Source: a virus. Taken from it: 64,000 bases of DNA. The stretch is from positions 64,785-128,784 of the IMG/VR virus record IMGVR_UViG_3300017746_000001. The stretch is one strand, 5' to 3'. The notes beneath the pieces are model-generated. The model had not been told where the DNA came from, ran no database searches, and saw only the letters and a program-made list of their open reading frames with translations. A program made the position numbers and the translations under genes. Below, one piece after another: positions 4,760 through 58,753 of the stretch (position 1 is the first letter of the stretch; every line of letters begins with the position of its first letter).

Positions 4760-7279
4760 ATGGCCGAAGACCTTGTGATGCATTGGTTGGTTCGGCTTAG
4801 AGACATTTCAAACAATAGAGTCCCAGACATTTCATTGCTCAATGTTGCTCGAAGATTGGGTGGTGTTTCTGGAGACAAACCCCTTGAGAGCAAGTATTAT
4901 CGGGAAAAGGAACAGATAGATGATTCGGTTTTAGAAAAAATAGTCGATGGCTTGAAAGAAGCCTACAACAAAGATAGAGTAGTACCTGGAGAAAATGTAG
5001 GTGTTATTGCGGCTCATTCCATTTCTGAACCTGGTACTCAGATGACAATGAGGACATTTCATTATGCAGGGGTCGCGAATACGGTCAATCCGTTGGATGC
5101 GATGATTGCGGAACAATCGATGGTTCGAAGAATATACACAATGGGTCTTGCATTGGGTGAAGATATTAAATTAGATAGAGAAAAGGCCGAAAAATTGCGT
5201 TTTGGCGTTATGAGAACAAAATTGGGAGATGTTTGCGATATTGATTTCATAGATTATGAATCACAAGATGATATTGTGATTACAATGAAAAAGAAGTCTT
5301 CGGAAGATTCTGATGAAGAATGGGCGGCACTCAATAGTGACAATAGGTTTCCATCTTCTGATGAACTTGTTGAAGCGTTTCAGACTGTTTTCTTTTTCAA
5401 TTACGCTGGAGACCGGCGGTCTGATCCAGCAACGAGAGGAATGGAGATGCCTGGTTTGAGGTCGAACATTTCTGTTGGTAAAAATGAAGATGATTCGGTA
5501 TTTGTCAGGATGCCTCACTTCCCTGCTCGGTATAGGACTTCCTTACTGCACCTATTACACAATCTAGAGATTTGCAACAACTGTTCTTACCCCATACAAT
5601 ACATGAAAACACAACACCATTCTGAAAAAACCAAAGTAATTTCTAGAGATGATGAATCGGTGCCTTCCAACGAGGATTACTTGGCGATGGCAAAGAATTA
5701 CATGGACTTTGTTGAAAGTGGAGACATAGGCCAGATTGGGTTTGTCGAGGACTTAGCCCCAAAGAATAGGGAATCTTTGGCCGATGATGCCGTAGCCGAA
5801 GACCTCTTTGAAAAAATAGTTGAGGCTTCAAACGACTCAGAGGTTGAGAACTTTGAGGAATTATCTTACGGTTCTCCAGAATGGGCATTAGGGATTCGTA
5901 AGCTCTGGACTGCTACGCCTGCACACTATACTTTGGAGTTAGCCACTCAGACAGATTTCAAGTGCTGCAGAAGATGTGGCTTGGGTTGGCAGTTAGCTTC
6001 GGCAACACTTCGGCAAGTTGGAGACATAGACATAGACTACCTTATGTCGGAAGATATTTCGATTACAGATAAAACAAAAGTAAAGGATGGTTTTACCAAT
6101 TTGTATAGTCAGTTGACTAAAATTGCAGATCACCCACTAGATGATGTCAATTACGAGATTGTAAGTAAAGGTGATTCTAAAGGTAAGCAGATTCCATCCG
6201 ATGTTTATGAGGGCGTTTATCCTGGTTCTGGCCGCGAAGGTTCACTTACAGATTATCCTATACAAACAATGTCTTCTGGCAGAGGAATTGCAGGAGGCGT
6301 TGAGGGAGAGTATTTCCTATATGTTGTAGGCTCAGACACTCGAGGTTCGTCTGATTTCGTTTCTTCCTTACTTAGTGGCCCTGCAGCGAGAAGTTACTTC
6401 AATTCACCTATTGCTAACGGAAAGGGCTTTTCTAAGGATGTTTGGAAGGATAAACAAAGAGCGTCTTTCGCAGGTTATTTTGCTTTGACCGATGGAGATG
6501 ATAGGTTTGATTTCATGCGTTCAACTTGTGATGATCCGCGACAAGTGTACCATGCTTTAGGGATAGAGCCCGCTAGGATGGTTTTGTTAGAGAATTTGTA
6601 CCATATTGAAACAAATAGCGATGCAGATATAGCAGAGTTCGGAATTTCAAGTGCGGGGCTAGGAGTCCACATTAGCCACATGAGTTTGTTGATTGATGCA
6701 CTTTGTAGCGGAACTACCATGACCACTATCAGGAGTCAATCTTCCATCCAGGGAGGGCAAGGCATCGTTTCTAGAAAAGGCTCTATATCCAAGCAGTTAC
6801 CAGATGGTTCGCTCGTTAATTATGGAGAGATGTTAGCCATCGCATCTTATGAAACAGCAAATAGAGTCTTAATGGATGCCTCTTTAATGGGTGTCGTTGA
6901 TAGAATTCGTTCACTTAAAGGAGTACAGATTGTAGGAAATTTCGAAAATATAGGTTTTGATGGCACACCTCACAGAAGTAAAGGAGAAAATCTGCATCTT
7001 GTTGATGAATTGATAGCCCTACAAGGAGTAAAAGGGACAAAAGGCATAGGTGGGTTGAAAAAGCAAATCATCGATGAAATGGATTCCTATGTAAGTGAAT
7101 TATTCAGTGAAGGCTATACAATTACTGGTATGATGGAACTTCGAGAGTATGGCCCTCAGTTTGCACAATCTGACAAGTTCGCAATCTTGGCTCGCGACCC
7201 TGAATTTTTAGAACTCAAGTCAAAGCTCAAACGGGTTTTGGCTCGAATAGAAGAGATAAGAAATATTCTTGCGATCTAA
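4760..7279 (+). CDS. rpoA2: DNA-directed RNA polymerase subunit A'' (Rpo1C)-like protein with large insertion
   Basis: [31 protein letters not shown] trigger-loop region; C-terminal HMSLLIDAL and LAIASYET...GVVDRI blocks match A''. Confidence 0.9.
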
Positions 7280-7665
7280 ATGCCGTAAATCGCATTATCT
7301 CTTAGCCTCTTACTAGCTTCTTCTTCGGAAGTGTTCTGGGGCGGTTGAGGCTCTGGAGTAGGTTCTGGCTCATCTTGAGGTTCTTCTTCGCTCTGCGGGG
7401 GCTCTACGGGCTCAATTTCGAGAGTCTCTTCTACATCTTCAACTTCTTCGGCTTCATTTTCCTTTACCTCTTCTGGATTAAGTTCCTCTAATGCTTTTTG
7501 TTCCTCTTCATCTCTAGGGTATTCTTCTGTTTTGGACTTTACAGCATTACTTTCTCCAATGAAATATCTGCCTTCTTTGTATTTTTTCCAAAGAATAGAG
7601 ATTTCTTCGTTTTCTATACCTGAATGTTGGTGTTTGAATTGAGGCCATGTCATCTCGTCAGTCAT
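7276..7665 (-). CDS. acidic hypothetical protein with WPQF..H.G...EEIS.LW..YK motif
   Basis: ORF; motif shared with 12954..13382. Confidence 0.7.
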
Positions 7666-8093
7666 TAGAACGCCCTCCTTACTTCTTTAATGATTTCTTG
7701 AACCATATCTTTCGCTTCTTGAGTTAGCATTTTTGCCATGTGATCGTGATAATCACGCTTGGATTTGATTTCTTTCAAAGAAGTTAGTAAATCTTCGCTT
7801 ACTTTATCCGCCTTTTCAAACAATTCAATAGCATCTTGCTCTAACATAGCCTCTCCAGTAAACAAATCCACTAGTTGTTCTTTCGCTTCAAGTATTTCCT
7901 CAACTGGATTGTATTCTTCCTTTTCCTCTTCTTCTCCATCAAGATGAACTGCTTCTGTCAGCCAAAGAAGTTCCTCTAATGCTTCATTCTCTGCCATCTC
8001 ATGCAGTTTCTTATAGTTCTGATATGTCTTGCTTGCTTGCGCCAAACTCAAATTATTTTTGGAGCAAAGTTTCCTCCATTCGTTCCAGTTCAT
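7665..8093 (-). CDS. acidic hypothetical protein
   Basis: promoter-like TTCAAACGACAA 30 nt upstream; TAATG-coupled to next gene. Confidence 0.7.
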   Translation of the reverse strand: MNWNEWRKLCSKNNLSLAQASKTYQNYKKLHEMAENEALEELLWLTEAVHLDGEEEEKEEYNPVEEILEAKEQLVDLFTGEAMLEQDAIELFEKADKVSEDLLTSLKEIKSKRDYHDHMAKMLTQEAKDMVQEIIKEVRRAF

Positions 8094-8141
8094 ACAATAT
8101 TGTAGGGATGCTTGTCGTTTGAATGCTTCTAGAGTTTAGGT

Positions 8142-8196
8142 GGACGGAGGAGCCATGGTTACAGCCTATTCTGCCGCGCGGTCAGAACCCCCGTCC
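8142..8196 (-). ncRNA. candidate small structured RNA
   Basis: outer stem GGACGGGGG/CCTCCGTCC enclosing a TTCTG..CAGAA hairpin in a GC-rich intergenic stretch. Confidence 0.3.
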
Positions 8197-8224
8197 GAAC
8201 TGCCATGAAGGTGTTGTGGTTTAG

Positions 8225-8287
8225 GAGTTCGGGTCGGCAAAAGGGGGGAGCCTACCCAAGAGTTCGGGTCGGCAAAAGGGGGGAGCC
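8225..8287. repeat. 28-bp perfect direct repeat x2 (possible terminator or processing element)
   Basis: GAGTTCGGGTCGGCAAAAGGGGGGAGCC at 8225-8252 and 8260-8287. Confidence 0.85.
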
Positions 8288-8952: not shown

Positions 8953-9741
8953 TCATCTCGGTGCGAGTATATATTCTAATTTTGCACCATCAGGTAGTTT
9001 CGTTTTTATGCTAATTGGCATATTTTCTCCAAACCAAATATCACAAGTTTCTGCTTTAGCAGATTTGAGTTTCATAAATAGTGCGTTGAGATACTTTGTG
9101 CTGTATTCAGATTGAACAATTATTCTTTGCTCGTCTTCATTATTAATCTCTACCTCATGCGTCATATAGTTCCAGTCCCGAACCCAAAGGTTGATTTGGC
9201 CTGTTTCCGAATCTGCAGATAGGTTCCCTGTGTTGGCTTTCTTACGCATTCCATTGAGTGCTTCTTTCAGCCATGCAATTGAAACGCCATTTAAATGACA
9301 TCCCACTATGTTGCTAAAATCAGGCGTTCTCGGTATATTCATCGTTCTCCAATCAATAGTTTGTGGTTTTGCAGTCAAATATTTTGTCTTAATTTCTATT
9401 AACATGTCCTCAATTCTTATTTCGATTATATCAGACATACCTGCTGTTTTTACTGCAGTCAGTATATCATTCAAATTATCTAATGCTATTGAGCCCTCTT
9501 GTTCTACTTCGAATGAGGGGAATGAATTTGCAGACCATTCCCATATCATCATTGCTACATGGGAACCGTCAACTAATGTTGCACTTATTCCGTCTTTGGA
9601 AATTTGCATGCGTAACTCTAATTCTAAGATTGCAGTTATCTTTGTAAAATTCTCCAATTGCCTTCTTGTTAAACTTATATTTGCTATTGCACCTTGTTCC
9701 GGTACTTTTTTTATGATTTTTTTTTCTTTTATTATTGCCAT
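8953..9741 (-). CDS. pcn: PCNA-like DNA sliding clamp
   Basis: 262 aa; ISKDGISATLVDGSHVAM, YSTKYL, FGENMPISI and YILAPR C-terminus typical of PCNA. Confidence 0.85.
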   Translation of the reverse strand: MAIIKEKKIIKKVPEQGAIANISLTRRQLENFTKITAILELELRMQISKDGISATLVDGSHVAMMIWEWSANSFPSFEVEQEGSIALDNLNDILTAVKTAGMSDIIEIRIEDMLIEIKTKYLTAKPQTIDWRTMNIPRTPDFSNIVGCHLNGVSIAWLKEALNGMRKKANTGNLSADSETGQINLWVRDWNYMTHEVEINNEDEQRIIVQSEYSTKYLNALFMKLKSAKAETCDIWFGENMPISIKTKLPDGAKLEYILAPR

Positions 9742-9750: not shown

Positions 9751-10884
9751 TTATCTTGTGTAATTCAAGACATCTTTATTCACGGTGGCATCTCCTCTGA
9801 TTGAGTTGTATGCCTTGTGTAATACTTTCAAATTGTTTCTATCGACCCATGTGCTGTGAAATCTTTCATACAGCATATCTGCTAGTCCTGTCGGATCACC
9901 TTCAAAATCTGATAATCTTTCAGCGTCCCTATCTAATTCATAGATATTGTGCAGTTTGCATACTTCTGTACCTGCCGCGCCTGGTAGGTTGAAGGCTGCT
10001 ATGAGTTCATCGAATGTCATCCCTGCGAAGGGATAGTAGTCGTCTTGTAGTCTTTCTTTCAAGAATTCTGTAGCCCAATCTTCTTCATAGTTGGGTTTTC
10101 GACCTACATTGATGAAGCGCCCATGATCTGTGCAGAATATCTTCTTCATCATTGCATTTAGTCTCCAACTTGTCGCATCGACTGATTTCGCCCCTAGTAA
10201 AGCAGCGATTGGTGCGGCATTCATGCCTCCAGCTCCTAGTAGGAAAACTGGCCTCTCGTTGTTTCTAATTACGGACATCATATCGATTGCCTCATACCAC
10301 AAAGAAGTAGTTGAGGGCCTGATTCCTTTTTGTTTGGGCTTTTGACCGCCCTTTTTCATTGAGTCATAGACTCTTGCTTTAGCTTGTGCCAGATTAGATC
10401 CAAAACAGACTTGTTCTTTTTCGTCTAGTTCGTACATATCGATGTGTCTCTCTATGTCCACATCATTTCTGCCGTGAACTACTGGGACAGTTACCGATAT
10501 TTCAGATTTCATCAACTCATACCATTCTTTCGAAGTTTTTTGTCTTTTCAAAGCTTCTTCATCTGATATTCCATCCATCCTTGGAATTGGAAAATCAGCC
10601 GAAATGATTGTGTCGTTTGGTCCGAATCCTACTTTTCTGTGCTTATCTATCAATCCTTCAACATCGAAGTCTTTCGCTAAGGAAGGATTTTCTAAAAACA
10701 GGAAGCCCCCTGAATCTTTTGCCACGAAGTTATCTTCCGTGAAATTCTCAAAGTGCCACCCTGGTTCTTTTATTTTTGATAAATCGACCAACACGCTGTC
10801 GGTCACATCTGCTATTTTCCAATTTTTACTTCCCATCGTCGCTGGATGCTCCGATGTATAATTTAGAAATTTTTTTCTTGCCAT
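9751..10884 (-). CDS. tRNA-guanine transglycosylase-fold protein (DpdA-like)
   Basis: DSGGF, ADFPI, VPVVHG, FLLGAG and SVDATSW motifs of the TGT barrel. Confidence 0.7.
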   Translation of the reverse strand: MARKKFLNYTSEHPATMGSKNWKIADVTDSVLVDLSKIKEPGWHFENFTEDNFVAKDSGGFLFLENPSLAKDFDVEGLIDKHRKVGFGPNDTIISADFPIPRMDGISDEEALKRQKTSKEWYELMKSEISVTVPVVHGRNDVDIERHIDMYELDEKEQVCFGSNLAQAKARVYDSMKKGGQKPKQKGIRPSTTSLWYEAIDMMSVIRNNERPVFLLGAGGMNAAPIAALLGAKSVDATSWRLNAMMKKIFCTDHGRFINVGRKPNYEEDWATEFLKERLQDDYYPFAGMTFDELIAAFNLPGAAGTEVCKLHNIYELDRDAERLSDFEGDPTGLADMLYERFHSTWVDRNNLKVLHKAYNSIRGDATVNKDVLNYTR

Positions 10885-17513: not shown

Positions 17514-17524
17514 GGTCAGTCTTC

Positions 17525-38758: not shown

Positions 38759-38760
38759 TT

Positions 38761-45845: not shown

Positions 45846-45863
45846 GGTGAGTTCGGGTTGACG

Positions 45864-45907: not shown

Positions 45908-45917
45908 TTAATTTCTA

Positions 45918-46172: not shown

Positions 46173-46479
46173 GGTTAGTTGGTCACTTTACCGTCAGACC
46201 ACGACAAGCACGCATACAGGGGTTAGTTTCCCATATCGTACTTCGTTGAGGCAGGCGTGAACATTATTGTGATAAACAAAAACAACATTTGGTAGCAATA
46301 CCCTCTCTCTGCCTCGTATTGCATGGTTAGTATGTGTCTCTCAAAACCGAGCATTTCGCTTCCCCGTAGGGGTGCGGTAAGGCTGAAACACAGTTTGCCT
46401 TTTTCTATTAAGAGCAAAGGTCGTGCTGCTCTGTCACGGCCCCATAGGGGTCTTATCTCTAGTTACTCGGAATTGTTCT

Positions 46480-47136
46480 TTAGTTCCTAGGCCTACCGGA
46501 GAGTCGGCGGAATGTATTTTTAGCATTCACCTTCTTAGGTATTGTAACCTCTTCGGGTGGGTTTTCCTCTTCCAGTTGCTTTTGTTTGAGGAGTTTTCTT
46601 CTGCGGTAAACGCGATCCCTCCTGTTTGCATCTGTCCCAGGTATGTATGCCATTGCCTCATCCGGCCAATTCTCTCGAAGTGCTAATTCTAGAACACCTC
46701 TTATCGTAGTTATTTCCTCGATAGGTCTCTTTGGTCTTGGTGTTTTCCTGTAACCTTCCGTCATGGAATGACGACTTAGTGTAGCGTCGAATTTTTTACC
46801 TCCGAACACCTCTTGGGCGCTTTTTTCACGGCTGTTCTTCACTATATCGCTGCATTGTTTGAATGTTTCCTGCAGGACCTTTATCACGCCAACTTCTAAT
46901 TTTTGTTGTTTCGCCATTTCTATAGCGCGTGTAATGTGAATTGATTCTTCTACTGCATCTTTTCTAATTTGAAGCAATAGATTGTCTGCATGCCCGTGTG
47001 CTAGTGCATTATCGCACCAGAAGCACGAGGCTGTGCCGTGAGTATCGAAGTTGTATTTTCGCTTCTCACATCGACCATTGTTCCTGATTACTTTCTCAAG
47101 ATGGTTGGTCAAGTCGCTTTTCCTTTCGTTTGTCAA
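46480..47136 (-). CDS. basic hypothetical protein, possibly nucleic-acid binding
   Basis: TTG start after GAGGTAGGTG; CFWC; Arg-rich C-terminus. Confidence 0.65.
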   Translation of the reverse strand: MTNERKSDLTNHLEKVIRNNGRCEKRKYNFDTHGTASCFWCDNALAHGHADNLLLQIRKDAVEESIHITRAIEMAKQQKLEVGVIKVLQETFKQCSDIVKNSREKSAQEVFGGKKFDATLSRHSMTEGYRKTPRPKRPIEEITTIRGVLELALRENWPDEAMAYIPGTDANRRDRVYRRRKLLKQKQLEEENPPEEVTIPKKVNAKNTFRRLSGRPRN

Positions 47137-47324
47137 AATGCACCACCTACCTCAAGTTTTTGGAGGTTTGACTCCATAGCATTTGGCAGCAGCGCATTGT
47201 AATACATATCGTAAAACATGGTCAGTTGCCTACTAGACGGTGCGGTTTGACTTTCTCGCTCCCAAAGCGATACAGTCCCTAGGCACCCCCTAGCAGGGTT
47301 GTGATATTCAAATGGTCAAACCAA

Positions 47325-49085
47325 TTACTTAGAACGATTTTTTTGAGACACTTTTTTGGGATTCCTGGCTTTGTGAGCCTTATTTCTTTCATCCCTACTC
47401 TTGTTTCTCATAGCAATCGTTTCCTCGCTGTATGGTACTGCCAGAAGACAAATCGTTGGTTCTCCTGCAAAGTCCTCAACCCTCACTTGAAGGTGGGACG
47501 CATTCTTGCCAATATTCCCGCTTGTTGCGGTCTTGACTACTTGGGGTCTGGCTCTACTAGCATCTCGCGATACCAGTTGGTAGCCATCATTAGCCCCATA
47601 TGGAAGGAACAAGTGGGTCTCGCTCAAAGCATCTATCGCTCGAACGAGTCCAGTCAGTTCGTGTAAAGGATCGGCTTCGACTAATTCCTTCGCCCTATTC
47701 AGTAAGAAACTGAAATTTGTTAGAGCAAGGTCGTCTGAGCCTGTCCTGTTGTTCTGTCCAATTATGTCACATGTAGTCACGCTGCGGTTGAATCCCATAA
47801 CCTCCAAGAACGGAAGTATTAGGCTTCTCACCGTCAAATCGCTGATATTATCCTTAGTCAACCAGATTTGAGACTGCGTCTTACCGTATTTGTTTGGCTT
47901 GTTCGCGTTCTCTACAGTTCTGGATGATTTCTTGAAGGCGCTGATGTGGAGTTTAATTCCATATGGGTGATCAAAATTCCAGTTAACCTCTTTGGCTTCC
48001 TGAAGCTGATTGCCCTCTAGTTGCCCTCCATGGGCAGCCACCAGTAGACTTCGTATCATATCTATGCTCAGAGGGGTTTTCCCACTAATCATAAAGTTCA
48101 ACATAGGATGTATAGCGGTTCGGCTTGTCGCAAAGGACATTAAGCCTAGACGCGCTAGAACATTATGCTTGAATGCAAATGCATCGGCAAACCATGACGA
48201 TTCATTGCGCTGGAAGTTCATTTGAGACTGTGTCAACAATCCCATTGCAATAGAGTTAGTCCTTTTTGGGTCAGGGAACGACATTTTTGTGTCTTTACCC
48301 TTACCGGACCTTCTCGGGGCTGATTCTATCTTGAAACAGCCTTGAACTTGCGCATTTTCATCTCCTGGACAAGTAACGATGTCATAGAGAGTCCATGTCG
48401 AGCATTCTGAAACTGCTTCTGTCATAATAAAGCCGAATTGAACGCCATCAGGCTTGTCTTTGCGGTTGTTAAGCGCTTCAACAAAGTCCTCGACATTCTC
48501 TCGACTGTATAGACCAGACGCAGCTATTCCACTAGACTGCAAATCGGAATGCATCTTTACATCTTCTGCGATGTCGATGCTCATTCCTAGCATGCTAGCA
48601 AATAAACTCGTGTCTCCTCCACCGTCTTCCAACGAAGAAATAATTGCGTATGAAGCTCCAAATCCGCGTGAGATTCTCTTCTCCCCAGGCTTTCGTGGAT
48701 TATCCTCGAATATCTCTGGGTGGCGGTTTTCTAGTTCTGCTAGCCATTGCTTTCTATTGTGCGCATGATCTTTGCCTGTCACTATAACTTTGGAACGGAT
48801 TCCGCAAATATTCGCTTCTCCGTATTTCCCTGTCTGTTGTCGTGCTAGGTCCATCGATTCAATTGCGTTCGCATTGACTTGTGCCTTTTCGCTTTCTTTC
48901 TGTTGGTTTGTGTGTACACTAATGATTTCATCAATTAACAGATGTTTCTTAGGGTAATGTGAGAGTGTTATTCCCATTCCCTTTGCCTGTTCTCTTAGTT
49001 CTACCATTGTGTTCTTATCCATTTTTTCATGTAGTGTAGCCTCTTGTGTGCTACCATTGCCTGTATAATTATTGTAAATTACCAT
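47325..49085 (-). CDS. large hypothetical protein with Rho-N/HeH-like N-terminal segment
   Basis: motif-led; TMVELREQAKGMGI...KKHLLIDEI. Confidence 0.75.
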   Translation of the reverse strand: MVIYNNYTGNGSTQEATLHEKMDKNTMVELREQAKGMGITLSHYPKKHLLIDEIISVHTNQQKESEKAQVNANAIESMDLARQQTGKYGEANICGIRSKVIVTGKDHAHNRKQWLAELENRHPEIFEDNPRKPGEKRISRGFGASYAIISSLEDGGGDTSLFASMLGMSIDIAEDVKMHSDLQSSGIAASGLYSRENVEDFVEALNNRKDKPDGVQFGFIMTEAVSECSTWTLYDIVTCPGDENAQVQGCFKIESAPRRSGKGKDTKMSFPDPKRTNSIAMGLLTQSQMNFQRNESSWFADAFAFKHNVLARLGLMSFATSRTAIHPMLNFMISGKTPLSIDMIRSLLVAAHGGQLEGNQLQEAKEVNWNFDHPYGIKLHISAFKKSSRTVENANKPNKYGKTQSQIWLTKDNISDLTVRSLILPFLEVMGFNRSVTTCDIIGQNNRTGSDDLALTNFSFLLNRAKELVEADPLHELTGLVRAIDALSETHLFLPYGANDGYQLVSRDASRARPQVVKTATSGNIGKNASHLQVRVEDFAGEPTICLLAVPYSEETIAMRNKSRDERNKAHKARNPKKVSQKNRSK

Positions 49086-49099
49086 GGTCAGTCAAATAG

Positions 49100-49650
49100 T
49101 TGAGTATTCTAATTCTAGAGCAGCCTCTCTACTGCAGGCTTGCTAATATTGCAATACTAGCGGGTGCCTTCACTCACGAGTTCTAATTCGTGTATTGAGT
49201 TATTCGAGTTTTACCTCAAATACTACTCTAGAAGGGCTAGACCAAGCGTTCTGCTTTCACAGATTACCATTCTCGCCCCTGGTTGTTTGGCCTTTCGGCC
49301 TGATGGCATCATTTTATCCCCTCTGCAACATCTCTGCTGGAAAGGACTGGACTCAATTATCGGATTTCCACTTCATCCGACCATCATTTTGTGGCCTCTC
49401 GGCCCTAGGTTTGCGAGGTTTCGCTCGCTCCGTTTACCCTCTCGGGCCTCGGTGTAGTTTGTATGAAGCCTCTCGGCTTCGTATGCAACTTCCTTCACCC
49501 TCAATTCCGGAACCCTGCATGGGCCTGCGCACTTTTGGTTGCGCATAGTAATACATGATTAGTTTACGAACCTACTAAATTCTTCTTAACTCATAAAGAA
49601 TCTCGTAGTGAGTTATGCAATAGAAAGCCAAAGGCTTTCTAGTGCTATTT
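49100..49650 (-). ncRNA. candidate large structured RNA
   Basis: several GNRA-capped hairpins on - strand (GGCC-GAAA-GGCC, GGCC-GAGA-GGCC, CCC-GAGA-GGG, GAAGCC-GAGA-GGCTTC, CTGT-GAAA-GCAG); no credible ORF; ends approximate. Confidence 0.65.
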
Positions 49651-49737
49651 CGTAATACATGATTAGTCCGAGATTGTTACTCACCACCTTATCTCGAATC
49701 GGGTGGGTCATAGTATCTGCCATGAAATTTTTTGAAT

Positions 49738-50001
49738 TTACTGCGGGTGCTTTGATTGATGTCTAGCGACTGCAATCACATAATTTGCGTTTTGTTGGGC
49801 TTCTTTCAGTTGTTCTCGACTATTCCTTAAATCTTCTAAGGATTTGTCCCTGACTGCCTTTGTGATGAGCCTTTTCATCCACAAATGTGTGATTTGGTCG
49901 TCTAACTGGCGACCCGTCAACATTCTTGTTTTCATGTTTCCGTTACTTTTCTTTCGGAGAAGTGCATCCGACCCATTGGGATTTTTTTGCGTATTAGGCA
50001 T
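49738..50001 (-). CDS. small basic protein
   Basis: variant motif ACTAACCATG directly after the tRNA CCA. Confidence 0.65.
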   Translation of the reverse strand: MPNTQKNPNGSDALLRKKSNGNMKTRMLTGRQLDDQITHLWMKRLITKAVRDKSLEDLRNSREQLKEAQQNANYVIAVARHQSKHPQ

Positions 50002-50010
50002 GGTTAGTTT

Positions 50011-50087
50011 TGGCGGGTCTAGCAGGGTTCGAACCTGCGGCCTTCCGGTTAAGAGCCGGACGCTCTACCTGACTAAGCTATAGACCC
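50011..50087 (-). tRNA. tRNA-Lys (anticodon CTT), CCA encoded
   Basis: GGGTCTA acceptor stem, TCCGG-CTCTTAA-CCGGA anticodon arm, GGTTCGAACC T-arm, ends GCCA. Confidence 0.95.
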
Positions 50088-50782
50088 TTTTGACCCTCTG
50101 ACGAGGGTTTTGTCGTAAAACATTGTTAGTAGTAACATGTCGGTCTTTCCCGACTGTCTTTGTTTGATGAGATCAAGTCCCATCATGCGTATTTTATCAG
50201 CAATACATTATCAAACTTCCTCGGGCATAGCCCGCACAACATCTTTTCCCTCGACCTAATCGTTAGGGAAATTCGTAGCCTGATTTGTGTTCACCGTTAG
50301 GTGTGTTGCATATCTTCCAGAGGTTAGCTTCTACCAGATTTCTCATTCTCAGAGTCAAGTTACCTGTTGGTAATCCTGTTCTGTGAGGCTGGTTTCGCAA
50401 CGCCGCTTTCGCTTTTTCTCTCTCTCAATACTGCTGTAACGCATTTAGCGTATGTGTATGACACCCAATTCATCCCTAAATGGGGGCCGCCCGCCTTTTT
50501 GTTTCCAAAAATTGGACTTTGGTTTCTGTTCATTCCTCTCAAGGAGGAGGCAACTACGCCCCAAAGTGATTCCAACTAGGTTAATCTGCTAAGAAAAACC
50601 CATTTGGCGGGTTACTCATCATGCATTCGAGCGAGAATAAATCTCGGGATTACTTCGTGAAATGCATGAGTTATTAATCCGGTGTTCCATGTTACTCTCA
50701 CACATTCCTCAATGTTAGCACATTGCTTGTGTAAGTAGATCGTGTAGCCCCTCGGGGCAACCAGATGGAGAACTCTCGTTCT

Positions 50783-50889
50783 CACTATATAGGCCATCGG
50801 CCCTCTAGAAGAGAGCCAAATACAGCCTTTCAGGCGCTTTGACACGCCTTTACACTATATAGGCCAACGGCTCTCTAGAAGAGAGCCAT
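50783..50889. repeat. ~37-bp imperfect direct repeat x2, 70-bp spacing
   Basis: CACTATATAGGCCAWCGGCYCTCTAGAAGAGAGCCA. Confidence 0.85.
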
Positions 50890-50911
50890 AGTTAGTACCA
50901 TATAGAGTAAT

Positions 50912-51371
50912 TACTGTAGTATACGCCATCGGCATTCTTGAACTAGGGACATAAATGCCTCTATTTCGTGTCAAATTAGCCTGTTACCAGGCGTTTTTCG
51001 AACCGTATGGCGATCTGAAGCTATTCACTACAATAAGTTAGTAGTAAATAGCCGCTATACTGTAGCATACGCCATCGGCCTTCTTGAAGAACGGACATTT
51101 CGTACCGTTCTAACTGCAAATCTGCCTGTTTCCAGGTGTCTTCTGAACCGAATAGCGATCTAAAGCTACTTACCACTATAAGTTAGTAGTAAATAGCCGC
51201 TATACTGTAGCATACGCCATCGGCATTTATCAAACAAGCCCTAATAGACTGTTTTTTCGGACCCCTAGGTGATTTTCCTAAGTGATCTGATATTCTTAGC
51301 TCACATATTTGTAAATGTGTGCAAAGTTAATACCGAGTAGCACAATTGCTACTAATTACGCCATCGGCATT
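50912..51371. repeat. ~145-bp imperfect tandem repeats with TACGCCATCGGC cores
   Basis: GCCATCGGC at 50925, 51071, 51216, 51360; ATAAGTTAGTAGTAAATAGCCGCTATACTGTAGCATACGCCATCGGC present twice. Confidence 0.85.
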
Positions 51372-51399: not shown

Positions 51400-52296
51400 A
51401 TGGCTGATGCTCTGAGTATGGGACTTCGCTCTTTTGAAGGATTGAATTGCCCTGTAGGAAAACCTCCAGAGTGTATTTTTTCTGGAGGGGGCATCGAACT
51501 CAATACTGATGATAACAAAGTTTTGGACAATCCTTCCTGCCCAGTCTGTGGATTAACCCCCGAACTAATGATTATGGAAAGTAGTTTAACATTCGATTCT
51601 GAGGGGCGAGCAATAGCTCCAGTTACTTTATCACTTACAGGTTCGCAAAGAAATAGAAGAGAGTTTAGAAACAAACTAACTGAAATGCTACTTAATCCGA
51701 AATTCGAACTATCTGCAAATGCACAGGGTCAAGGTGTGATTTACTTCGAAAAATTGTTAGATGCAGGGTATCACAAAGGAGGAACTGGTTTAGATGCTGT
51801 CACTCATACATCGATTTATTTAGCAACTAGATTTGATTACAACTTTGTGCCGTTAGATCAGATAGTTAATTCCGATTCTATTTTGAAGAAGAAAGTTAAC
51901 AGGTTAGTGAAGAGAGCGATTAACGAGAAAGTAATAGAAAGACCTGTTGCTGAACCTTTATCTGTACTTAATTCCGTATTAGCGAGAAAACCTCAAACAT
52001 CAGAAGTAGAGAAGCGAGCAAGGGAATTATCTAGAATACATGTACCAGGACTTCGCCCCCAATATCATGCTGCGGCTTCATTGTACATGGCACTTAGAGA
52101 AAATAACTCTAGATGGGAAGAGTGGATGAGCCAGGAATCCGTAGGAGAGATTTTTCACATTGGCAGAAAATCAGTAGGTTTAGGCTACAAGGCTATATCT
52201 GAAAGAGTGAATCCAAAGGATAACCCCCCTCCTAAGTGGGAAACTGGTCCAGGACTAACTGCTTCTCAAATACGCCAATTAAGAAAGTTGAGGTAA
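51400..52296 (+). CDS. tfb: transcription initiation factor TFB/TFIIB-like protein
   Basis: N-terminal Zn ribbon (CP..C, CPVCG); two cyclin-like repeats (SIYLATR, AAASLYMALR); C-terminal SQESVGEIF HTH; TTAATTAA 30 nt upstream. Confidence 0.75.
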   Translation: MADALSMGLRSFEGLNCPVGKPPECIFSGGGIELNTDDNKVLDNPSCPVCGLTPELMIMESSLTFDSEGRAIAPVTLSLTGSQRNRREFRNKLTEMLLNPKFELSANAQGQGVIYFEKLLDAGYHKGGTGLDAVTHTSIYLATRFDYNFVPLDQIVNSDSILKKKVNRLVKRAINEKVIERPVAEPLSVLNSVLARKPQTSEVEKRARELSRIHVPGLRPQYHAAASLYMALRENNSRWEEWMSQESVGEIFHIGRKSVGLGYKAISERVNPKDNPPPKWETGPGLTASQIRQLRKLR

Positions 52297-53238: not shown

Positions 53239-53363
53239 TCCCTTTTGTGGGCATAGCAAGGCAGAAGTAAGAGTTTTTCCCATTTTAGGAGTATCTTGTT
53301 CAGAGTGTAAAACCTGTGGACATATGTCGTTATCCATATACGACAAACACGCTTAGAGGTTTT

Positions 53364-56024
53364 GTGAACATAGGATTCGCCATCATAGGAAACCCGCCTT
53401 TTATGCCTACGGGCTACGGAACTCAATGCCGAATGCTAGGAGAATCTTTAGTTTCTGACGGTTTTCCCGTGTGCCATATTTCAGACTGGAGTTATTCAGG
53501 GTCAATAATGGATTACAACGGAGTAAAAGTATATCCTGTATCAGAATATCCAGGGACGCTGAAAAGTGATGATTTGGTCAAGAAGATTTCACATTTTGCA
53601 GCACAAGAGGATTTAGACGACATAATTACAATATTCCTAGGAGATCTGTGGAAATGGAATGGCTTAGGCCGATTCCCACCTAACTCAATCGTAATTTGTC
53701 CAGTAGACGGTTCGGGCTTAATTCCAAAAGAAGTGATGGAAATCGGTTCTTTTGACCATGTGGCTTCAATGTCAAAATGGGGTTCAGAGGTAATCGAAGA
53801 ATATACAGGAGCGCCCCCTCTTTACTTACCTCATGGATTCGACCCTGAGTTACAATCTGCTGTAGAGGATTTGTCCGTCAGAGTAATTCGTTCTAGATGG
53901 ACAGAATTGCTCACAAAGATGCGCGTTCCTCTCTCAAAAGGAGATGATGCTTTCATCGTGGGCTTCTTTGGAGATTTTTCCGTAAGGAAGGAACCAGAAA
54001 TTAATCTCCTAGGGTTTCGTATGTTTGTTGAATCACTCCCTATTGAAGAAAGAGAGTTTGTGAAGCTTTACTTGAAAGGAAAACCAGAACACCCTCAATC
54101 TCAAAGTTCTTCTATGTATCAATCAATAGGCATTCCTTCTTCCATGGTACTTACTGTAGCAGACTCCGACTCTCAGTTAGGTTTGACAACCGAGCAAATG
54201 GCTAGATTACTCAAAGGAGTCGATGTTTTGTTGCATTGCAGCAGTCAAGAAGGCTTTGGGATATTTCAAATCGAGGCTCAGGCCGTTGGAACACCCGTAA
54301 TCAACACTTCTTTTGGCCCTATGACTAATTTGAATGCTTTTTCTGATTTATGCCTTGAGGCCGTCAAATACAGAGAAGTAAATGGAGTGAAGTATGGGCA
54401 AGCAGATCCGAAGCATATTGCAGATAGGCTTGCTATGCTTTACCAAGAATGGAAAGATGAAACATTGTGGATAAGTCGCAGAACTGCAGTTAAGAACTGG
54501 GCGCAAGATTGGTCTTATCCTTCCGTGTATCGTAATACGATACAACCTGCACTTCAAAAAATTGTAGACGAATTGAAAGCACCTCGGATTAAGATTAGGC
54601 CGCCCATCGAAACCCACCATGTAGCCTTTGTTTCCACATTCGATACTGAATGCGGAATTGCCACATACACACGAATGCTTGCTAATTCTTTGATACAGAA
54701 CGGAGTAAAAGTGAGCGTACTAGCAGAAGTTACACCCGACCACCCAGTTAGCGATGAGCCTACTGATTATGACGGTATATCTGTCTATAGGTGTTGGAGT
54801 AGGAATGCTCCAAATTGGGTTTTAGCAGACGAAATACTAAACAAAATCCACCCAGATGTTCTTCATGCTCAACATGAATGGACTATGATTGGTCAGGCGA
54901 CTCAAGCTCTTGCTAATCTGATAAGTAATTTTGATGGCGCTAGAGCCATCACATGGCACACTCCCGACTTCCCCTCGAACGAAAGGGCTCGGAATACATT
55001 CATGTTGTTTGATTCAGTTTGTGATCTTCACATTTTGCATAATCGTTCGAAAGTGCCAATGATGGCATCTCAATGCATGAATGGAGTCACACATATTGAT
55101 CATGGGATTCTTTCCATTGAGCCGAATCCCAATGCTAAATCCATTGTTCAGGTAGGAGAGCGTGTTCCGATGTTATTCACCTACGGTTTCTTATCAGGCG
55201 GCAAAGGAGTTCATACATTCTTGAAGGCGGCACTAAAGGCTGTTGAAAAATCGCCTTACTTTGAAGTAGTTGCTTATGGAGGGGCTCACCCTAATTATCC
55301 CACGCATCCTGATTTACTCAAGGAATGTCACGATTTGGCCGACCAATCTGAACAGATTTACTTCATACCAAAATTGTTGTCAGAAGAAGAGATTGATTTA
55401 CATTGTAATGCTGCTGATTTCCTTGTTTTCCCGTATGAAGGAGAGTTGTTATCAGGTGGGTCAATTTCAAGTTCTTCTGGTGCTGTTTTCAGAGTTTTGG
55501 ATTCGGGCAAGCCAATTATCTGCAGCGACGAGGGTCGCTTGAGAGACATTATAGGAGGCATACATGGATGGAAAGTTGCACAGGGAGATTCTGAAAGCCT
55601 TTCTGAAGCTATCGCTGATGCAGTATCTTGTTATTTGTCAGAACCTTCTCGCTATAACAAGATGAGAGCGTCCGTAAAGCAATTGTCTCACAGGTTGTCA
55701 TGGGATAATGTGAGTAAGAGACATATCAATGCCTATAGAAAGGCCTCAAAGTTATGGGGTGTGTATTCTAGTAACCCTACCGCAGCATTTAGCGGCATTC
55801 AAGGCGAGCATATTGATTTCATGGATATTGAAACAGTTTCTTCAACCACGGGTTCGGAAGACGAAGAAATTACACAATTGGATAAAGGCGGTAATTTTGA
55901 TTTGAACAATTTACCTACACCGCCCCACCCTGATTCTCCTCTTTGGAATTCAGAAGATAGAAAAAAAATGATTGAACATATAGATAGCATAGGGGGTGAT
56001 TCCAATACCGGACAAGAATCTTGA
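53364..56024 (+). CDS. tandem GT-B (family 4-like) glycosyltransferase
   Basis: PTGYG, EGFGI...EAQAVGTPVI; second unit ECGIATYT, GFLSGGKG, FPY, SSGA; GTG 53364 is 29 nt after CATATACGACAA. Confidence 0.85.
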   Translation: MNIGFAIIGNPPFMPTGYGTQCRMLGESLVSDGFPVCHISDWSYSGSIMDYNGVKVYPVSEYPGTLKSDDLVKKISHFAAQEDLDDIITIFLGDLWKWNGLGRFPPNSIVICPVDGSGLIPKEVMEIGSFDHVASMSKWGSEVIEEYTGAPPLYLPHGFDPELQSAVEDLSVRVIRSRWTELLTKMRVPLSKGDDAFIVGFFGDFSVRKEPEINLLGFRMFVESLPIEEREFVKLYLKGKPEHPQSQSSSMYQSIGIPSSMVLTVADSDSQLGLTTEQMARLLKGVDVLLHCSSQEGFGIFQIEAQAVGTPVINTSFGPMTNLNAFSDLCLEAVKYREVNGVKYGQADPKHIADRLAMLYQEWKDETLWISRRTAVKNWAQDWSYPSVYRNTIQPALQKIVDELKAPRIKIRPPIETHHVAFVSTFDTECGIATYTRMLANSLIQNGVKVSVLAEVTPDHPVSDEPTDYDGISVYRCWSRNAPNWVLADEILNKIHPDVLHAQHEWTMIGQATQALANLISNFDGARAITWHTPDFPSNERARNTFMLFDSVCDLHILHNRSKVPMMASQCMNGVTHIDHGILSIEPNPNAKSIVQVGERVPMLFTYGFLSGGKGVHTFLKAALKAVEKSPYFEVVAYGGAHPNYPTHPDLLKECHDLADQSEQIYFIPKLLSEEEIDLHCNAADFLVFPYEGELLSGGSISSSSGAVFRVLDSGKPIICSDEGRLRDIIGGIHGWKVAQGDSESLSEAIADAVSCYLSEPSRYNKMRASVKQLSHRLSWDNVSKRHINAYRKASKLWGVYSSNPTAAFSGIQGEHIDFMDIETVSSTTGSEDEEITQLDKGGNFDLNNLPTPPHPDSPLWNSEDRKKMIEHIDSIGGDSNTGQES

Positions 56025-56337
56025 TGATGATTTAGCAGCAGAACAGCAGATGATTGCGGAGGTTCGAGATTTCCTTAATCGAGATAGAACCAACAGTTCG
56101 ATATTCGACTTGAATAATGATGGATTAGTTGATTTCGACGACCTTAGAGATGCTTTACTGCGGTTTGAATGGATTATTTTTAGTGGCGTATTATTGACCC
56201 TGTTGCCGATCCTCAATTGGCTTGAAATTACATCTATCGATGGCGATTTGTTTTGGTCTTTGGCAGGTTTTTGCTTGCTTATCGAGGGGTTGATTTCAGT
56301 TTATCAAATTAGAAATATGACAAGGAGGAAGAAATAA
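55996..56337 (+). CDS. membrane protein with EF-hand-like loop
   Basis: DLNNDGLVDFDD plus two hydrophobic segments. Confidence 0.7.
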   Translation: MIPIPDKNLDDDLAAEQQMIAEVRDFLNRDRTNSSIFDLNNDGLVDFDDLRDALLRFEWIIFSGVLLTLLPILNWLEITSIDGDLFWSLAGFCLLIEGLISVYQIRNMTRRKK

Positions 56338-56657
56338 TGAGTTACAAGAGATTGTTTCGATACCTGGTAATGATTATGCTTGGAGGATTAGGTTTATTCA
56401 ATTCATATAAATTGGAGTTGAGATATGAAACTAATAGTAACTTAGAATTGTTATGCCAAAACGGCATAATTGTTTCTAGTATCGTAATTATTTACTTTGC
56501 ACTAGCATTTATGGTCGAAATTTTGTTGAGGAGGAATTTGCATTCGAGAAAACCGAGAGTTCGGCAGCGTAAGTTCAAGAAAAACACCCCTTTGGAAACA
56601 GAAGAGGTTATCGGGGCTCAAGAATTCTATGAAAAAGAGACTAAGGAGGAAGAATAA
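56337..56657 (+). CDS. membrane protein
   Basis: two hydrophobic segments; TAATG-coupled. Confidence 0.7.
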   Translation: MSYKRLFRYLVMIMLGGLGLFNSYKLELRYETNSNLELLCQNGIIVSSIVIIYFALAFMVEILLRRNLHSRKPRVRQRKFKKNTPLETEEVIGAQEFYEKETKEEE

Positions 56658-57448
56658 TGAAAGTAAGTGTGATTTGTATTACTGCTAGAGAAACACCAGG
56701 ATTGGGCAGACTTCTTGATTCCTTAGTTTCTCAAACATTTCCAAAAGAAGACTTCGAACTCGTTTATGGTGATAGATTGTGGGAGTCAAGAGAATCCGAG
56801 GTCAAGGCTTTAGCTTCAGAGTATCAACTTAACTTCACTTATGTTAGAGACATACCGACCAAAGAAGGCCCTTGCCCTGCAGGTGCGAGAAATGCTTGTG
56901 TTGATGTCGCGAAAGGAGATTGGATATTGTCCATAGATGATTTAACATTCCTAAAACCAGATACCATACAACAGCATTGGGATTTATATTTATCTGGGTT
57001 CGATTCCGTGGCAGGATCGTATCTTTCTTCTACTGGTGGCGAAGAGTTTGTGATAGATGATGCACGAATTACAAACGAAGGGGGAGTGGTTAGTCCTACT
57101 GATCTAACGGTTTGGTTATCATGGTGGGGACTGCATACTGCATTCTCGAAAACAGCCTACGACAAGATAAACGGCTATGATGAGACATTTGATGGCGTTT
57201 ATGGCATGGAAGACATAGACTTCGGCCATCGTTTGAAGATGGCAGGATGCACTATGGCATGGGAACCAAGTATTCTTGTCCTTTGCGATAAAGGCCCAAG
57301 TCACAAGGACACGCACTCAACACTTCTCAAAGAAGGCGCACCTACCTCTTGGGCTCGAGGTAGCCTTAAGTGGAGGAACGATAAGTTGATTGATTACAGT
57401 CGGGCGATGAATGTCGTAAGAGGCAAAAAGGAGGTGAAGAATAGATGA
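56657..57448 (+). CDS. GT-A (family 2) glycosyltransferase
   Basis: VSVIC, ARN, SIDD, GYDETF..YGMEDIDFG.RL. Confidence 0.88.
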   Translation: MKVSVICITARETPGLGRLLDSLVSQTFPKEDFELVYGDRLWESRESEVKALASEYQLNFTYVRDIPTKEGPCPAGARNACVDVAKGDWILSIDDLTFLKPDTIQQHWDLYLSGFDSVAGSYLSSTGGEEFVIDDARITNEGGVVSPTDLTVWLSWWGLHTAFSKTAYDKINGYDETFDGVYGMEDIDFGHRLKMAGCTMAWEPSILVLCDKGPSHKDTHSTLLKEGAPTSWARGSLKWRNDKLIDYSRAMNVVRGKKEVKNR

Positions 57449-57615
57449 AATTTAGAACTACATCTGGAATGACTGAGTTCAATAAAAAATATATTTCCGC
57501 ATGGACCGAGCATAAAGATGGTACAGATGTTTTCATGTTGTGCGGTAGTGTATTCACTATCGTTAGAATGGAAAGAGAAATGTTCTCCGAATGGTGCCGA
57601 GGTGAGACAGTATGA
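57445..57615 (+). CDS. 56-aa small protein (not in ORF track)
   Basis: ATGA overlaps at both ends; GGAGGTG SD. Confidence 0.6.
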   Translation: MKFRTTSGMTEFNKKYISAWTEHKDGTDVFMLCGSVFTIVRMEREMFSEWCRGETV

Positions 57616-58229
57616 GCGATACTAGGTTGAATGTTGACCAATGGGATGCTCATTGCCCCATTTGCAAAGAGATTGTAGCCGAAGAAAGTTGGCCTAGACT
57701 ACTAAAAGATAAAATGAAGGATGCTCAAATGGAAGCACCTCCTTGCCCTTTCTGCGGTGCTGATATTGAATATAATTACTTGACTGTTCCTAATAAGGCC
57801 ATGAGGGGAATGACACATAACATGATTATTTCCTGTCCTTCTTGTGGTTCAGGCCATTTCTATGAAGGCATAGATGTTTTGACTAATAGAGCTAAGATTG
57901 TTTTGAAGATGCCTCCTGAGTACGACTTTAAGCAAGCGCAAAAGCAAATAGATCTTGCAGGTGATGAAGAATCTAGAGAAAGAGCAAAGAAACATGCTCA
58001 GGACTGTTTGATGCTTTCTGCGTTTTTCAGAATTCAAAATTTCCCTTGCCTTGACGATGGTTGGGATGCAATGGGGTATGGTGTCAGACCCCTAGAAAGA
58101 ACCGAAATTATGAATAAATTCTATGTTTGGACTAATAAAGAGGCAGTTGGCGAAGCCAATCAAGACGATAATCCACTCAAGAAAACCCCTAGAACAAGGA
58201 AATCCAAGAAGAAAAAGAAGTGGTGGTAG
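57612..58229 (+). CDS. Zn-ribbon protein
   Basis: CPIC, CPFC, CPSC. Confidence 0.7.
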   Translation: MSDTRLNVDQWDAHCPICKEIVAEESWPRLLKDKMKDAQMEAPPCPFCGADIEYNYLTVPNKAMRGMTHNMIISCPSCGSGHFYEGIDVLTNRAKIVLKMPPEYDFKQAQKQIDLAGDEESRERAKKHAQDCLMLSAFFRIQNFPCLDDGWDAMGYGVRPLERTEIMNKFYVWTNKEAVGEANQDDNPLKKTPRTRKSKKKKKWW

Positions 58230-58271
58230 GGTTGTGTCAGGTTTATACGACAATGACGGTTGACTTGATAC

Positions 58272-58421
58272 ATGCGTGAACCATACATCAAGCTAGCCCT
58301 AAACTTTAGTGATGCAGACGGAAACCCAGGAGTCATTCAGACTGAATGCGCTCCCAATGTGGTTGGAGAAGCCTGGGAATCATTGAAGCAACAGGTAGCA
58401 GATCTCCAAAAGAAAGAATGA
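58272..58421 (+). CDS. 49-aa small protein (not in ORF track)
   Basis: ATG 30 nt after TTTATACGACAA. Confidence 0.5.
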   Translation: MREPYIKLALNFSDADGNPGVIQTECAPNVVGEAWESLKQQVADLQKKE

Positions 58422-58456
58422 GAAATCCCTAAACCCTAAGCCCCCCTCGGAGGGCT

Positions 58457-58753
58457 ATGGTTGGACGACTCGGGGCTCATGCAATGATGCCCACCTTTAC
58501 TTTAATGGAGCCTTCCGACATACAGGAAGATTTCCATTTGTCAAGTTTATCCAGTATGGATGAACTTCCTAAAATTTCAGTTGACGACCCTGCGATAATT
58601 AGCCTCAAAGTTGAATTAGATATGAATAATGAGGAATTATCAGGTAGAGTAGTAAAATTCCTACGCAGATCACTCAAGGCAGGCATAGCACCGTTCTATC
58701 GTCAAATTGTTGCGACACCAATTGCGAAAGAAGATAGAATATGGAGTGTGTAA
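58457..58753 (+). CDS. rpoH: RNA polymerase subunit H (Rpo5/RPB5 C-terminal domain)
   Basis: HAMMP, LPKISVDDPA, GRVVKFLRRSLKAG...YRQIV. Confidence 0.85.
   Translation: MVGRLGAHAMMPTFTLMEPSDIQEDFHLSSLSSMDELPKISVDDPAIISLKVELDMNNEELSGRVVKFLRRSLKAGIAPFYRQIVATPIAKEDRIWSV

Follow-up and report, generated by a model that had tools for sequence, protein, structure and literature searches.

Parts of an archaeal-type RNA polymerase in a probable marine virus genome: a diverged A'' subunit, a TFB-like factor and an RpoH-like protein, with possible replacement of host subunits

Does a virus that carries single parts of an archaeal RNA polymerase build an enzyme of its own, or does it exchange subunits in the enzyme of its host? 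The question is raised by a stretch of 64,000 nucleotides, here called the window, which spans bases 64,785-128,784, i.e. the second half, of the 128,784-bp IMG/VR virus record IMGVR_UViG_3300017746_000001. A preliminary description, made from the letters of the window, had reported genes similar to A'' (Rpo1C), RpoH (Rpo5) and TFB, and had left two alternatives: a complete viral multisubunit polymerase, or a swap of subunits redirecting the host enzyme to two private motifs. The analysis described here favours the replacement of subunits in the host polymerase by viral A'' (and H), in a virus without an RNA polymerase of its own; a probability of roughly 55% is assigned to this reading. The three genes were all found, at the following positions of the window:

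4760-7279, plus strand: A''/Rpo1C-like gene, 839 aa, identified by Pfam, NCBIfam and solved-structure matches and by profile-profile alignment
51400-52296, plus strand: TFB-like gene with a conserved start, M19, at 51400; the open reading frame (ORF) is open from a TTG at 51346
58457-58753, plus strand: RpoH/Rpo5-like gene, 98 aa, of the archaeal short form, identified by Pfam and by a family profile

As described, the genes are dispersed, and the ORF list contains no rpoH-B-A'-A'' operon. Their placement among orphan genes holds in part: the neighbours also include DNA methyltransferases, PCNA, RusA and glycosyltransferases.

The 839-aa protein matches the Pfam family RNA_pol_Rpb1_5 (PF04998) with an E-value of 3.3e-19 and 69.8 bits, above the cut-off of 28.5, and its closest solved structures are archaeal Rpo1C chains (3.1e-15). 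When compared by hhalign with a profile of 12 cellular A'' sequences, residues 12-164 are aligned with a probability of 99.9, and residues ~405-738 are aligned onto A'' positions 216-461 of 476 with a probability of 98.5 (E 3e-15): since both ends align, the viral protein is a collinear, full-length A''. Inserted at about residues 165-405 are ~240 aa featuring two invariant CxxC pairs; one smaller insertion and a helical C-terminal extension of ~100 aa are further additions. The trigger-loop block (GEPxTQMTLxTFHxAG) is kept, including the catalytic His of TFHYAG, and its residues E90, P91, Q94 and R98-V105 do not vary in any of the 17 aligned family members, whose identity to the query otherwise ranges from 26 to 87%. 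Also conserved, in the C-terminal part, are the A'' blocks LGIE-AR, H..LL.D and YE...VL. Conservation of this kind would result from purifying selection on a working polymerase part, not on a decoy. The AlphaFold2 (AF2) model of the protein is poor, with a mean pLDDT of 51.3 and an insertion that is not interpretable; its closest folds are again archaeal Rpo1C chains (E 3.6e-5), at TM-scores of only 0.12-0.26. Judged from its sequence, the protein is a catalytically plausible replacement for A''/Rpo1C, the half of the largest subunit that comprises trigger loop and jaw.

The 98-aa protein scores 27.7 bits with Pfam Rpb5_C (PF01191), passing the cut-off of 23.5, and 33.8 bits with NCBIfam NF007129, below the cut-off of 83. 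A profile of its family matches subunit H of M. jannaschii (1hmj_A) with 8.4e-9 over residues 2-76 of 78; 13 relatives, 51-99% identical, were found, one of them of Tara source. For the TFB-like protein the single sequence reaches 18.6 bits with Pfam TFIIB, below the cut-off of 23.6, and the evidence comes from the family: a profile including nine relatives matches the Pyrococcus TFB core (1d3u_B, 1ais_B) with 1.3e-10, positions 97-275 against 17-197, across both cyclin repeats. The top 34 fold matches listed for the predicted core (pLDDT 74-94) are without exception TFB/TFIIB chains, with a TM-score of 0.72 and an rmsd of 3.6 A for 1ais_B. Four N-terminal cysteines (C35, C43, C65, C68) are invariant in 9 of 9 sequences; in the model the segment that contains them has a pLDDT below 50, and no ribbon fold is recovered. 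Of the nine relatives, one is named as coming from an "uncultured Mediterranean phage uvMED"; another bears the label TFIIB/Brf1 in its source. All three viral proteins remain below NCBIfam equivalog or subfamily cut-offs.

The rest of the enzyme was sought in the whole 128,784-bp genome. Rpb1 domains 1 and 2, Rpb2 domain 6 and TBP gave no match at E<=1 (polymerase controls match in 14 of 14 genomes), and the same holds for the family-B DNA polymerase DNA_pol_B, whose control matches in 6 of 14. A DFDGD-type motif was not found in a six-frame pattern search, and DxDxD occurs in none of the ten largest proteins without a family match (453-2989 aa). Pfam scans of 17 large and 10 mid-sized proteins of the first half recognised a thermosome, a guanylate-kinase-bearing protein of 2151 aa, fibronectin repeats and a serine recombinase, and no polymerase part. 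A' and B were thus not detected in the genome, and hence none adjoins the viral A''. Of the two alternatives left by the preliminary description, which had proposed to look for Rpo1N, Rpo2 and TBP in the rest of the contig, a multisubunit polymerase of the virus is unsupported, since A', B and the catalytic motif all went undetected; a swap of subunits fits what remains. Because the genome supplies a constrained A'', a TFB and, here, an H, with the rest of the enzyme undetected, replacement of host subunits is the simplest reading.

In the protein database the viral A'' has 16 full-length relatives at 48-87% identity and a further three at 26-27%; the contigs that carry them are up to 129 kb long. 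Cellular A'' comes next, at ~1e-14, covering 11-26% of the query. An alignment-based scan of IMG/VR returned one whole-length relative among 80 kept loci, together with many giant-virus Rpb1 genes as distant relatives, and a scan with the single A''-like protein returned nothing. The annotated phage collection holds no match to either the A''-like or the TFB-like protein. Among 185,579 prokaryote species genomes, one for each species, only ordinary A'' was found: the viral form is present in none of the 80 best loci, and the best cellular match is partial (3e-18).

The whole-length relative in IMG/VR, G001, is a record of 127,570 bp, likewise with terminal repeats. BLASTP finds counterparts there for 66 of 168 ORFs, and the gene order agrees once circular permutation is allowed for; among the 66 are A'' (843 aa) and TFB, both at syntenic places, the thermosome, glycosyltransferases and large proteins without assigned function. 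No Rpb2 was found there either.

The position of the viral A'' was examined in a quick maximum-likelihood tree of 364 columns with 77 archaeal, 12 giant-virus and 13 viral rows; left out were 3 of 80 archaeal loci (ORF below 300 aa), 64 of 76 giant-virus rows (the 12 being kept at random) and 7 of 20 viral proteins (near-duplicates). All 13 viral sequences group together in a single clade (SH-aLRT 100), which is separate from the giant-virus clade and lies outside all 77 archaeal rows, Poseidoniales/Thermoplasmatota included; as the program flagged that long branches meet, the point of attachment of the viral clade is uncertain. As a side observation, seven contigs of Bathyarchaeia (L115, L116, L130, L131, L152, L154, L158) carry A' and A'' fused in one frame, as a gene of 1272-1281 aa. 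Several contigs with an archaeal A'' are titled as bacteria (L119, L130, L142), probably by mis-binning.

The mechanism proposed for the viral A'' and its companions is the following. In the infected cell, newly assembled polymerase would combine viral A'' (and H) with the A', B and small subunits of the host. The chimeric enzyme would thereby gain a zinc-bearing surface of ~240 aa and a changed second trigger helix, and the viral TFB would recruit it to the viral transcription units, among them a 40-kb gene array whose members start at a common heptamer. In the sub-lineage represented by this genome, a replacement RpoH/Rpo5 would also be supplied. Possible gains of the exchange are the reading of the heptamer as an initiator, processive transcription of units of 40-60 kb, transcription of methylated DNA and escape from host control; transcription of heavily methylated viral DNA is suggested by the presence, in the array, of at least six methyltransferase-like genes. 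Both the incorporation into the host enzyme and the reading of the heptamer by the chimera are what we infer from this set of genes. The order of assembly fits an exchange: in M. maripaludis, according to the available text of PMC13556214, Rpo1'1'', Rpo6 and Rpo5 join late, so that the exchanged parts would be those added last.

Several observations weigh against this replacement. With the NCBIfam model rpoA2 (TIGR02389) the 839-aa protein scores 98.2 bits (5e-28), a value short of the equivalog cut-off of 420.65 and indicative of high divergence, as is the long branch in the tree, where the stem of the viral clade measures ~1.2-1.5 changes per column. All 12 cellular A'' sequences have the second trigger helix LGLPRLIE unchanged; the viral family has NPLD.MI..QS in its place, which could equally reflect an altered or lost catalytic function. 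For a protein so diverged, pairing with host A' is only predicted from the sequence. The RpoH-like gene is absent from the complete G001 by protein, tblastn and profile search, and because of this the pairing of A'' with H is not general. Modelling reported in the same M. maripaludis study, in the part available, places Rpo5 on Rpo1' and not on Rpo1''. A co-fold of viral A'' with viral RpoH scored 0.60, against 0.00 for the best control, with runs agreeing in at least 50% of contacts and a partner pLDDT of at least 67; the mark is one that 58 of 80 solved complexes pass, as do 2 of 110 mismatched pairs, and scores of 0.60 or below were those of 7 of the 80 solved complexes and of both passing mismatches. 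This co-fold lends the pairing weak support, since the pass may come from likeness, Rpo1C and Rpo5 being adjoining in solved polymerases.

What the viral TFB and a chimeric enzyme might read can be approached from the array itself, whose main features are given below, with a tRNA gene outside it, in window positions.

8629-49091, minus strand: array of 61 ORFs starting at A-CTGACC-ATG, mostly small genes, including DNA methyltransferases and PCNA
8953-9741, minus strand: PCNA, in the array
16254-17534, minus strand: PAPS-reductase-like protein, in the array
18453-37003, minus strand: at least six DNA methyltransferase-like genes, namely three of C5 type, Dam, N6_N4 and a full C5 methyltransferase at 35951-37003 (2.5e-47)
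50011-50087, minus strand: tRNA-Lys(CTT), directly followed by the motif variant ACTAACC-ATG

CTGACC-ATG is present at 61 ORF starts on the minus strand and once on the other strand, in the whole genome; in 60 of the 61 sites the hexamer is preceded by A. The motif occupies the gap between stop codon and ATG, usually of 7-12 nt. Upstream of the 61 starts there is no information content from -76 to -10, and neither a TATA-like nor a B-recognition element (BRE)-like signal was found; Shine-Dalgarno (SD)-like sequences accompany 3 of the 61, against 28 of 96 starts elsewhere. The heptamer differs from one lineage to another. G001 contains no copy of the ACTGACC type, and its equivalent array has 93 copies of CCGCTC-ATG (ACCGCTC-ATG). 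Among metagenome loci, ACTGACC-ATG is found in L173 (78% A'' identity; 5 copies), ACCGCTC-ATG in L176, L180 and L005 (36-37% identity; 9, 19 and 15 copies, respectively) and ATTGAAC-ATG in L177 (40% identity; 6 copies). Common to the three heptamers are A at -7, G at -4 and C at -1. As the heptamer is split among lineages, its reader must be encoded by, or co-evolve with, each virus lineage.

Of the two private motifs of the preliminary description, this first one is real, specific to a lineage and tied to the ends of RNA contigs; its link to the polymerase would follow if the chimeric enzyme is its reader. The second, TCAAA[CG]GACAA, did not hold up as a finding: it has only 5 full copies, too few for more than a lead, and its core is weakly enriched, with AAACGGC in 4 of 95 non-array upstream regions against 0.17 expected. 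One copy of the core stands before the A'' gene:

4735-4741, plus strand: AAACGGC box, 18 nt upstream of the start codon of the A''-like gene

The contig ends come from Logan contigs of four metatranscriptome runs from three studies (X15 and X16 representing one sample), compared with window positions 30,500-50,400. RNA-run cover is found in 22-30 of 30 bins, and depth is greatest at 46.4-50.4 kb, where the following unit lies:

47275-49556, minus strand: deepest RNA-contig unit, ~2.28 kb, comprising the 586-aa first gene of the array and a leader of ~470 nt

Contigs of all four runs have upper stops at 49,538-49,556, and 49,556 is the A of the ATG in the variant motif ACTAATC-ATG. At the other end, two contigs begin at 47,275 and 47,278, and an adapter-bearing loose end is also at 47,278. 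The counts that follow rest on 32 of the 171 RNA-run pieces. Three of the 32 (four with the variant site) have an upper end exactly on the A of a motif ATG, at 38,961, 41,500 and 42,427; two more ends, at 44,275 and 34,511, lie at most 2 nt from it, bringing those within 2 nt to 5 of 32 (6 with the variant). Motif sites are crossed, with at least 31 nt on each side, by 5 of 32 pieces, against a mean of 18 at random placement; the crossed sites include 49085 (three runs) and 47219 (one run). None of 20,000 random placements reached any of the three observed figures. The hint given by these figures, that RNA units start at the motif ATG, is statistically clear. It is limited, to the disadvantage of an initiating chimera, by the nature of assembled contigs, from which strand, true ends and expression level cannot be read and in which DNA carry-over is possible; moreover, RNA processing would explain contig ends at the ATG no less well than initiation would.

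One loose end of an RNA contig, carrying CATGGTCAG beside differing sequence, points to variant strains in which other cassettes lie at the borders of the motif. At window positions 42904 and 43471, contigs of related strains join differing sequence at or near such borders. These joins, together with the fact that only 16 of roughly 85 array ORFs are matched in G001, suggest that the array genes turn over like cassettes. Two further joints (38968>39265 and 42696>43471), considered as joining of a leader to a body, have sides of only 20-22 letters and were not used.

Two accounts may be given of the heptamer. In the first, the chimeric polymerase with the viral TFB would need no TATA box and would start transcription at the lineage-specific A-Y-Y-G-M-N-C, each array gene would have its own leaderless mRNA, and heptamer and reader would co-evolve. 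This more specific proposal is doubtful at present; if true, it would be the first virus-specific core-promoter system in archaea, and no virus before would have re-tooled a multisubunit polymerase of its host by exchanging part of the catalytic subunit. In the second, the heptamer is read at the RNA level: a sequence-specific viral endoribonuclease would cut long array precursors between CTGACC and AUG into leaderless mRNAs, while A'', H and TFB would have a different role, for example processive or termination-resistant transcription over 40-60 kb, or transcription of methylated DNA. As an alternative to the replacement reading as a whole it is the strongest, if still rather unlikely. The silent region from -76 to -10, the placement of the motif in the short gap after the stop codon with hardly any SD-like sequences, the RNA contigs that span sites 49085 and 47219, the motif variant directly after the tRNA and the methyltransferase-like genes of the array all agree with it. 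On the other hand, a candidate RNase did not come to light, the first gene of the array (586 aa) has no informative relative, and contigs do not separate primary from processed 5' ends.

The viral subunits could, instead of working, poison the host: as a shut-off decoy, A'' (and H) would sequester host A'/B or assembly intermediates, and the virus would use the leftover host enzyme with its own TFB. The remodelled second trigger helix, the large insertion and the score far under the equivalog cut-off are in its favour, and archaeal viruses do inhibit the host polymerase, as in the case of ATV RIP (PMC5123050, PMC8448823, in their available text). A decoy, however, has no need of the catalytic trigger-loop residues, His of TFHYAG included, that are invariant in 17 sequences, nor of collinearity with A'' over the full length, and a genome of 129 kb still needs a polymerase; the decoy is therefore considered improbable.

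Finally, the element might not be a virus at all, as a plasmid-like or cellular element of a marine archaeon would carry the three genes as ordinary cellular paralogs. The evidence for a virus is summarized here, after a list of some genes of the first half:

G000 27441-28205 (L002:8441-9205), plus strand: ATPase of 254 aa, matching phrog_2666 "terminase large subunit" with 1.1e-12 at profile positions 323-485; 56% identical in G001
G000 28242-29744 (L002:9242-10744), minus strand: thermosome (group II chaperonin), Pfam 1.6e-101; 53% identical to the copy of G001
G000 29896-36351 (L002:10896-17351), minus strand: multi-domain ORF of 2151 aa with guanylate kinase, DUF7831 and DUF5754; the G001 counterpart has 2464 aa

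The ATPase is a candidate packaging ATPase of a tailless virion. The IMG/VR record is classed as 100% complete on direct terminal repeats, and inspection of the sequence confirmed an exact direct repeat of 123 bp. As two closed records, this one and G001, carry terminal repeats and a terminase-like ATPase, the genome is taken as a complete virus genome; the virus is marine and probably tailless. G+C content is 39-44%, and the skews show long blocks of genes on a single strand. The origin of the reads is in keeping with a virus: sampled words of a 10-kb stretch were looked for in 24 listed run rows, and the stretch is present in 20 of them. In 14 DNA rows 98-99% of the words are found, and these are labelled as viral metagenome (9), seawater or marine metagenome (4) and with a coded organism label (1); six RNA rows from four studies contain 12-65%. 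The preliminary description had also held that rRNA and ribosomal-protein operons on the contig would speak for a cell. The tRNA-Lys(CTT) is the sole Rfam match in the window, and the other half of the genome has none; rRNA was thus found by Rfam in neither half, ribosomal proteins not being searched for as such.

Most of this stands against a plasmid-like or cellular element, namely the repeats that close both genomes, the viral-metagenome labels, the phrog_2666 match and the lack of rRNA, to which may be added that none of the 80 best loci of species genomes has A'' in its viral form. In favour of such an element, Pfam recognised no capsid, portal or tail family in 27 proteins of the first half, and PHROGs none in 10, so that, of the two virion components named for a search of the rest of the contig, only a terminase-like protein came to light. 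Moreover, a group of related marine elements, magrovirus group D, lacks a major capsid protein (MCP) and is regarded as maybe plasmid-like in the available text of Xu et al. 2023 (PMC10160649) and of a 2025 paper on Poseidoniales viruses (PMC11706807), the former also describing it as enriched in cellular fractions. On balance a non-viral element is very unlikely. A protein of 198 aa at G000 23377-23973 (minus strand; L002:4377-4973) has no family match and is, at 74% identity between G000 and G001, the best conserved of the structural block; it is a candidate capsid protein. We infer a planktonic archaeon as the host. Its assignment by way of the thermosome failed, a point that does not help the replacement reading: the best homologs in each of five archaeal genomes are 30-37% identical, and the Poseidoniaceae genome is ahead only marginally.

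That a complete viral polymerase is present with its other subunits diverged beyond recognition among the 790-2989-aa proteins without a family match, as once happened with the polymerases of crAss-like and phiKZ-like phages, is hardly tenable: seven proteins of 530-1068 aa without significant family match and an ORF of 2989 aa, conserved in G001 at 23-30% identity, would be available, A'' being the single subunit still recognisable, but Rpb1 domains 1/2 and Rpb2 domain 6 are unmatched even at E<=1, DFDGD-like and DxDxD motifs are missing from six frames and from the ten large proteins, respectively, and extreme divergence of the partners alone is unlikely where A'' and H homologs are readily recognised.

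Some features around the TFB-like and RpoH-like genes are reported for completeness. One of them precedes the RpoH-like gene:

57612-58229, plus strand: multi-zinc-ribbon protein of 205 aa, shortly before the RpoH-like gene, with 48% identity to its G001 counterpart

It was considered as a transcription factor and not counted, as its Pfam ribbons are sub-threshold, RPA12 is non-significant (E 0.47) and nothing was found in Atlas. For a 146-aa neighbour of the TFB-like gene the match to PCNA is weak (E 0.014). Between the TFB-like and RpoH-like genes, at 53316-57448 on the plus strand, a double GT4 glycosyltransferase of 902 aa and a GT2 enzyme are encoded, both 35-36% identical in G001. Between the head of the array and the TFB-like gene, at the point of strand switch, lie about four direct repeats of ~145 bp (50783-51371), with the minus-strand core GCCGATGGC; they may be an origin or a master promoter. 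In the array, neither Pfam nor NCBIfam assigns the first gene (586 aa) to a family, and its identification as UvrD_C-like was dropped, the best Atlas score of 0.78 being below a meaningful level; a DpdA/TGT identity for 9751-10884 receives no support from Pfam.

According to reviews, archaeal viruses encode no polymerase and rely wholly on the host enzyme (PMC5569661, in the text available); the strategies known for them are small inhibitors or regulators. The genes described here contradict the working rule that these viruses carry no polymerase parts, and would offer a natural experiment on the exchangeability of such parts. In the literature covered, which excludes subscription journals and supplements, no paper was found on an archaeal virus with A'' and H homologs, or analysing the polymerase gene of magrovirus group D; prior knowledge found in print, as far as the available texts go, is one sentence on an RNA polymerase A gene of that group, in related unclosed contigs. 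The sentence is in Philosof et al. 2017 (PMC5434244), where, in the text available, group D has a thermosome, a resolvase and a "DNA-dependent RNA polymerase A" gene of archaeal affinity, is defined by a family-B DNA polymerase, and has neither a closed genome nor a morphogenetic block, the nature of the contigs being left open. The present genome is similar in being marine, in its thermosome, resolvases (here RusA and a serine recombinase) and polymerase A-type gene (here A''), and in having no recognised capsid module; it differs in being closed and in having no DNA_pol_B match, and its membership of group D is accordingly uncertain. It provides a closed genome and a description at the level of genes for a type of marine element left as "virus, plasmid or cell?".

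TFB homologs are known from some rudiviruses and from the Asgard viruses JinchiV1 and PBV300 (PMC13700489, available text). There, too, a viral TFB is presumed to steer the host polymerase; unlike here, polymerase subunits are not reported for them in that text. With cellular archaeal Rpo1C, Rpo5 and TFB the viral proteins share a collinear A'' with a trigger loop, a short H and a TFB that has two cyclin repeats behind a Cys-rich N-terminus; they differ in the dispersal of their genes, in the undetected A' and B, and in an A'' with an insertion, an extension and a replaced helix.

For the heptamer, the closest likeness is found in signals at gene starts or junctions of other viruses, the late TAAAT(G) initiator of poxviruses and the transcription-regulating sequences of nidoviruses. 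Like these, it is a short, virus-specific element right at the gene start, differing among related lineages; the likeness is a lead only, as other virus classes and enzymes are involved. Heptamers and RNA contig ends together constitute a testable system for the initiation or processing of leaderless mRNAs in uncultured marine archaea.

The polymerase genes, lastly, may be set beside the RNA polymerases of giant eukaryotic viruses and jumbo phages, where a large DNA virus likewise has polymerase subunit homologs and a TFIIB-like factor. Giant viruses and jumbo phages with a multisubunit polymerase carry the catalytic pair; here, in contrast, only the A'' half is present, with or without H. A trigger-loop and jaw half with a second subunit and a TFB, and without a catalytic core, would represent a third strategy, between the use of the host enzyme and the possession of one's own.

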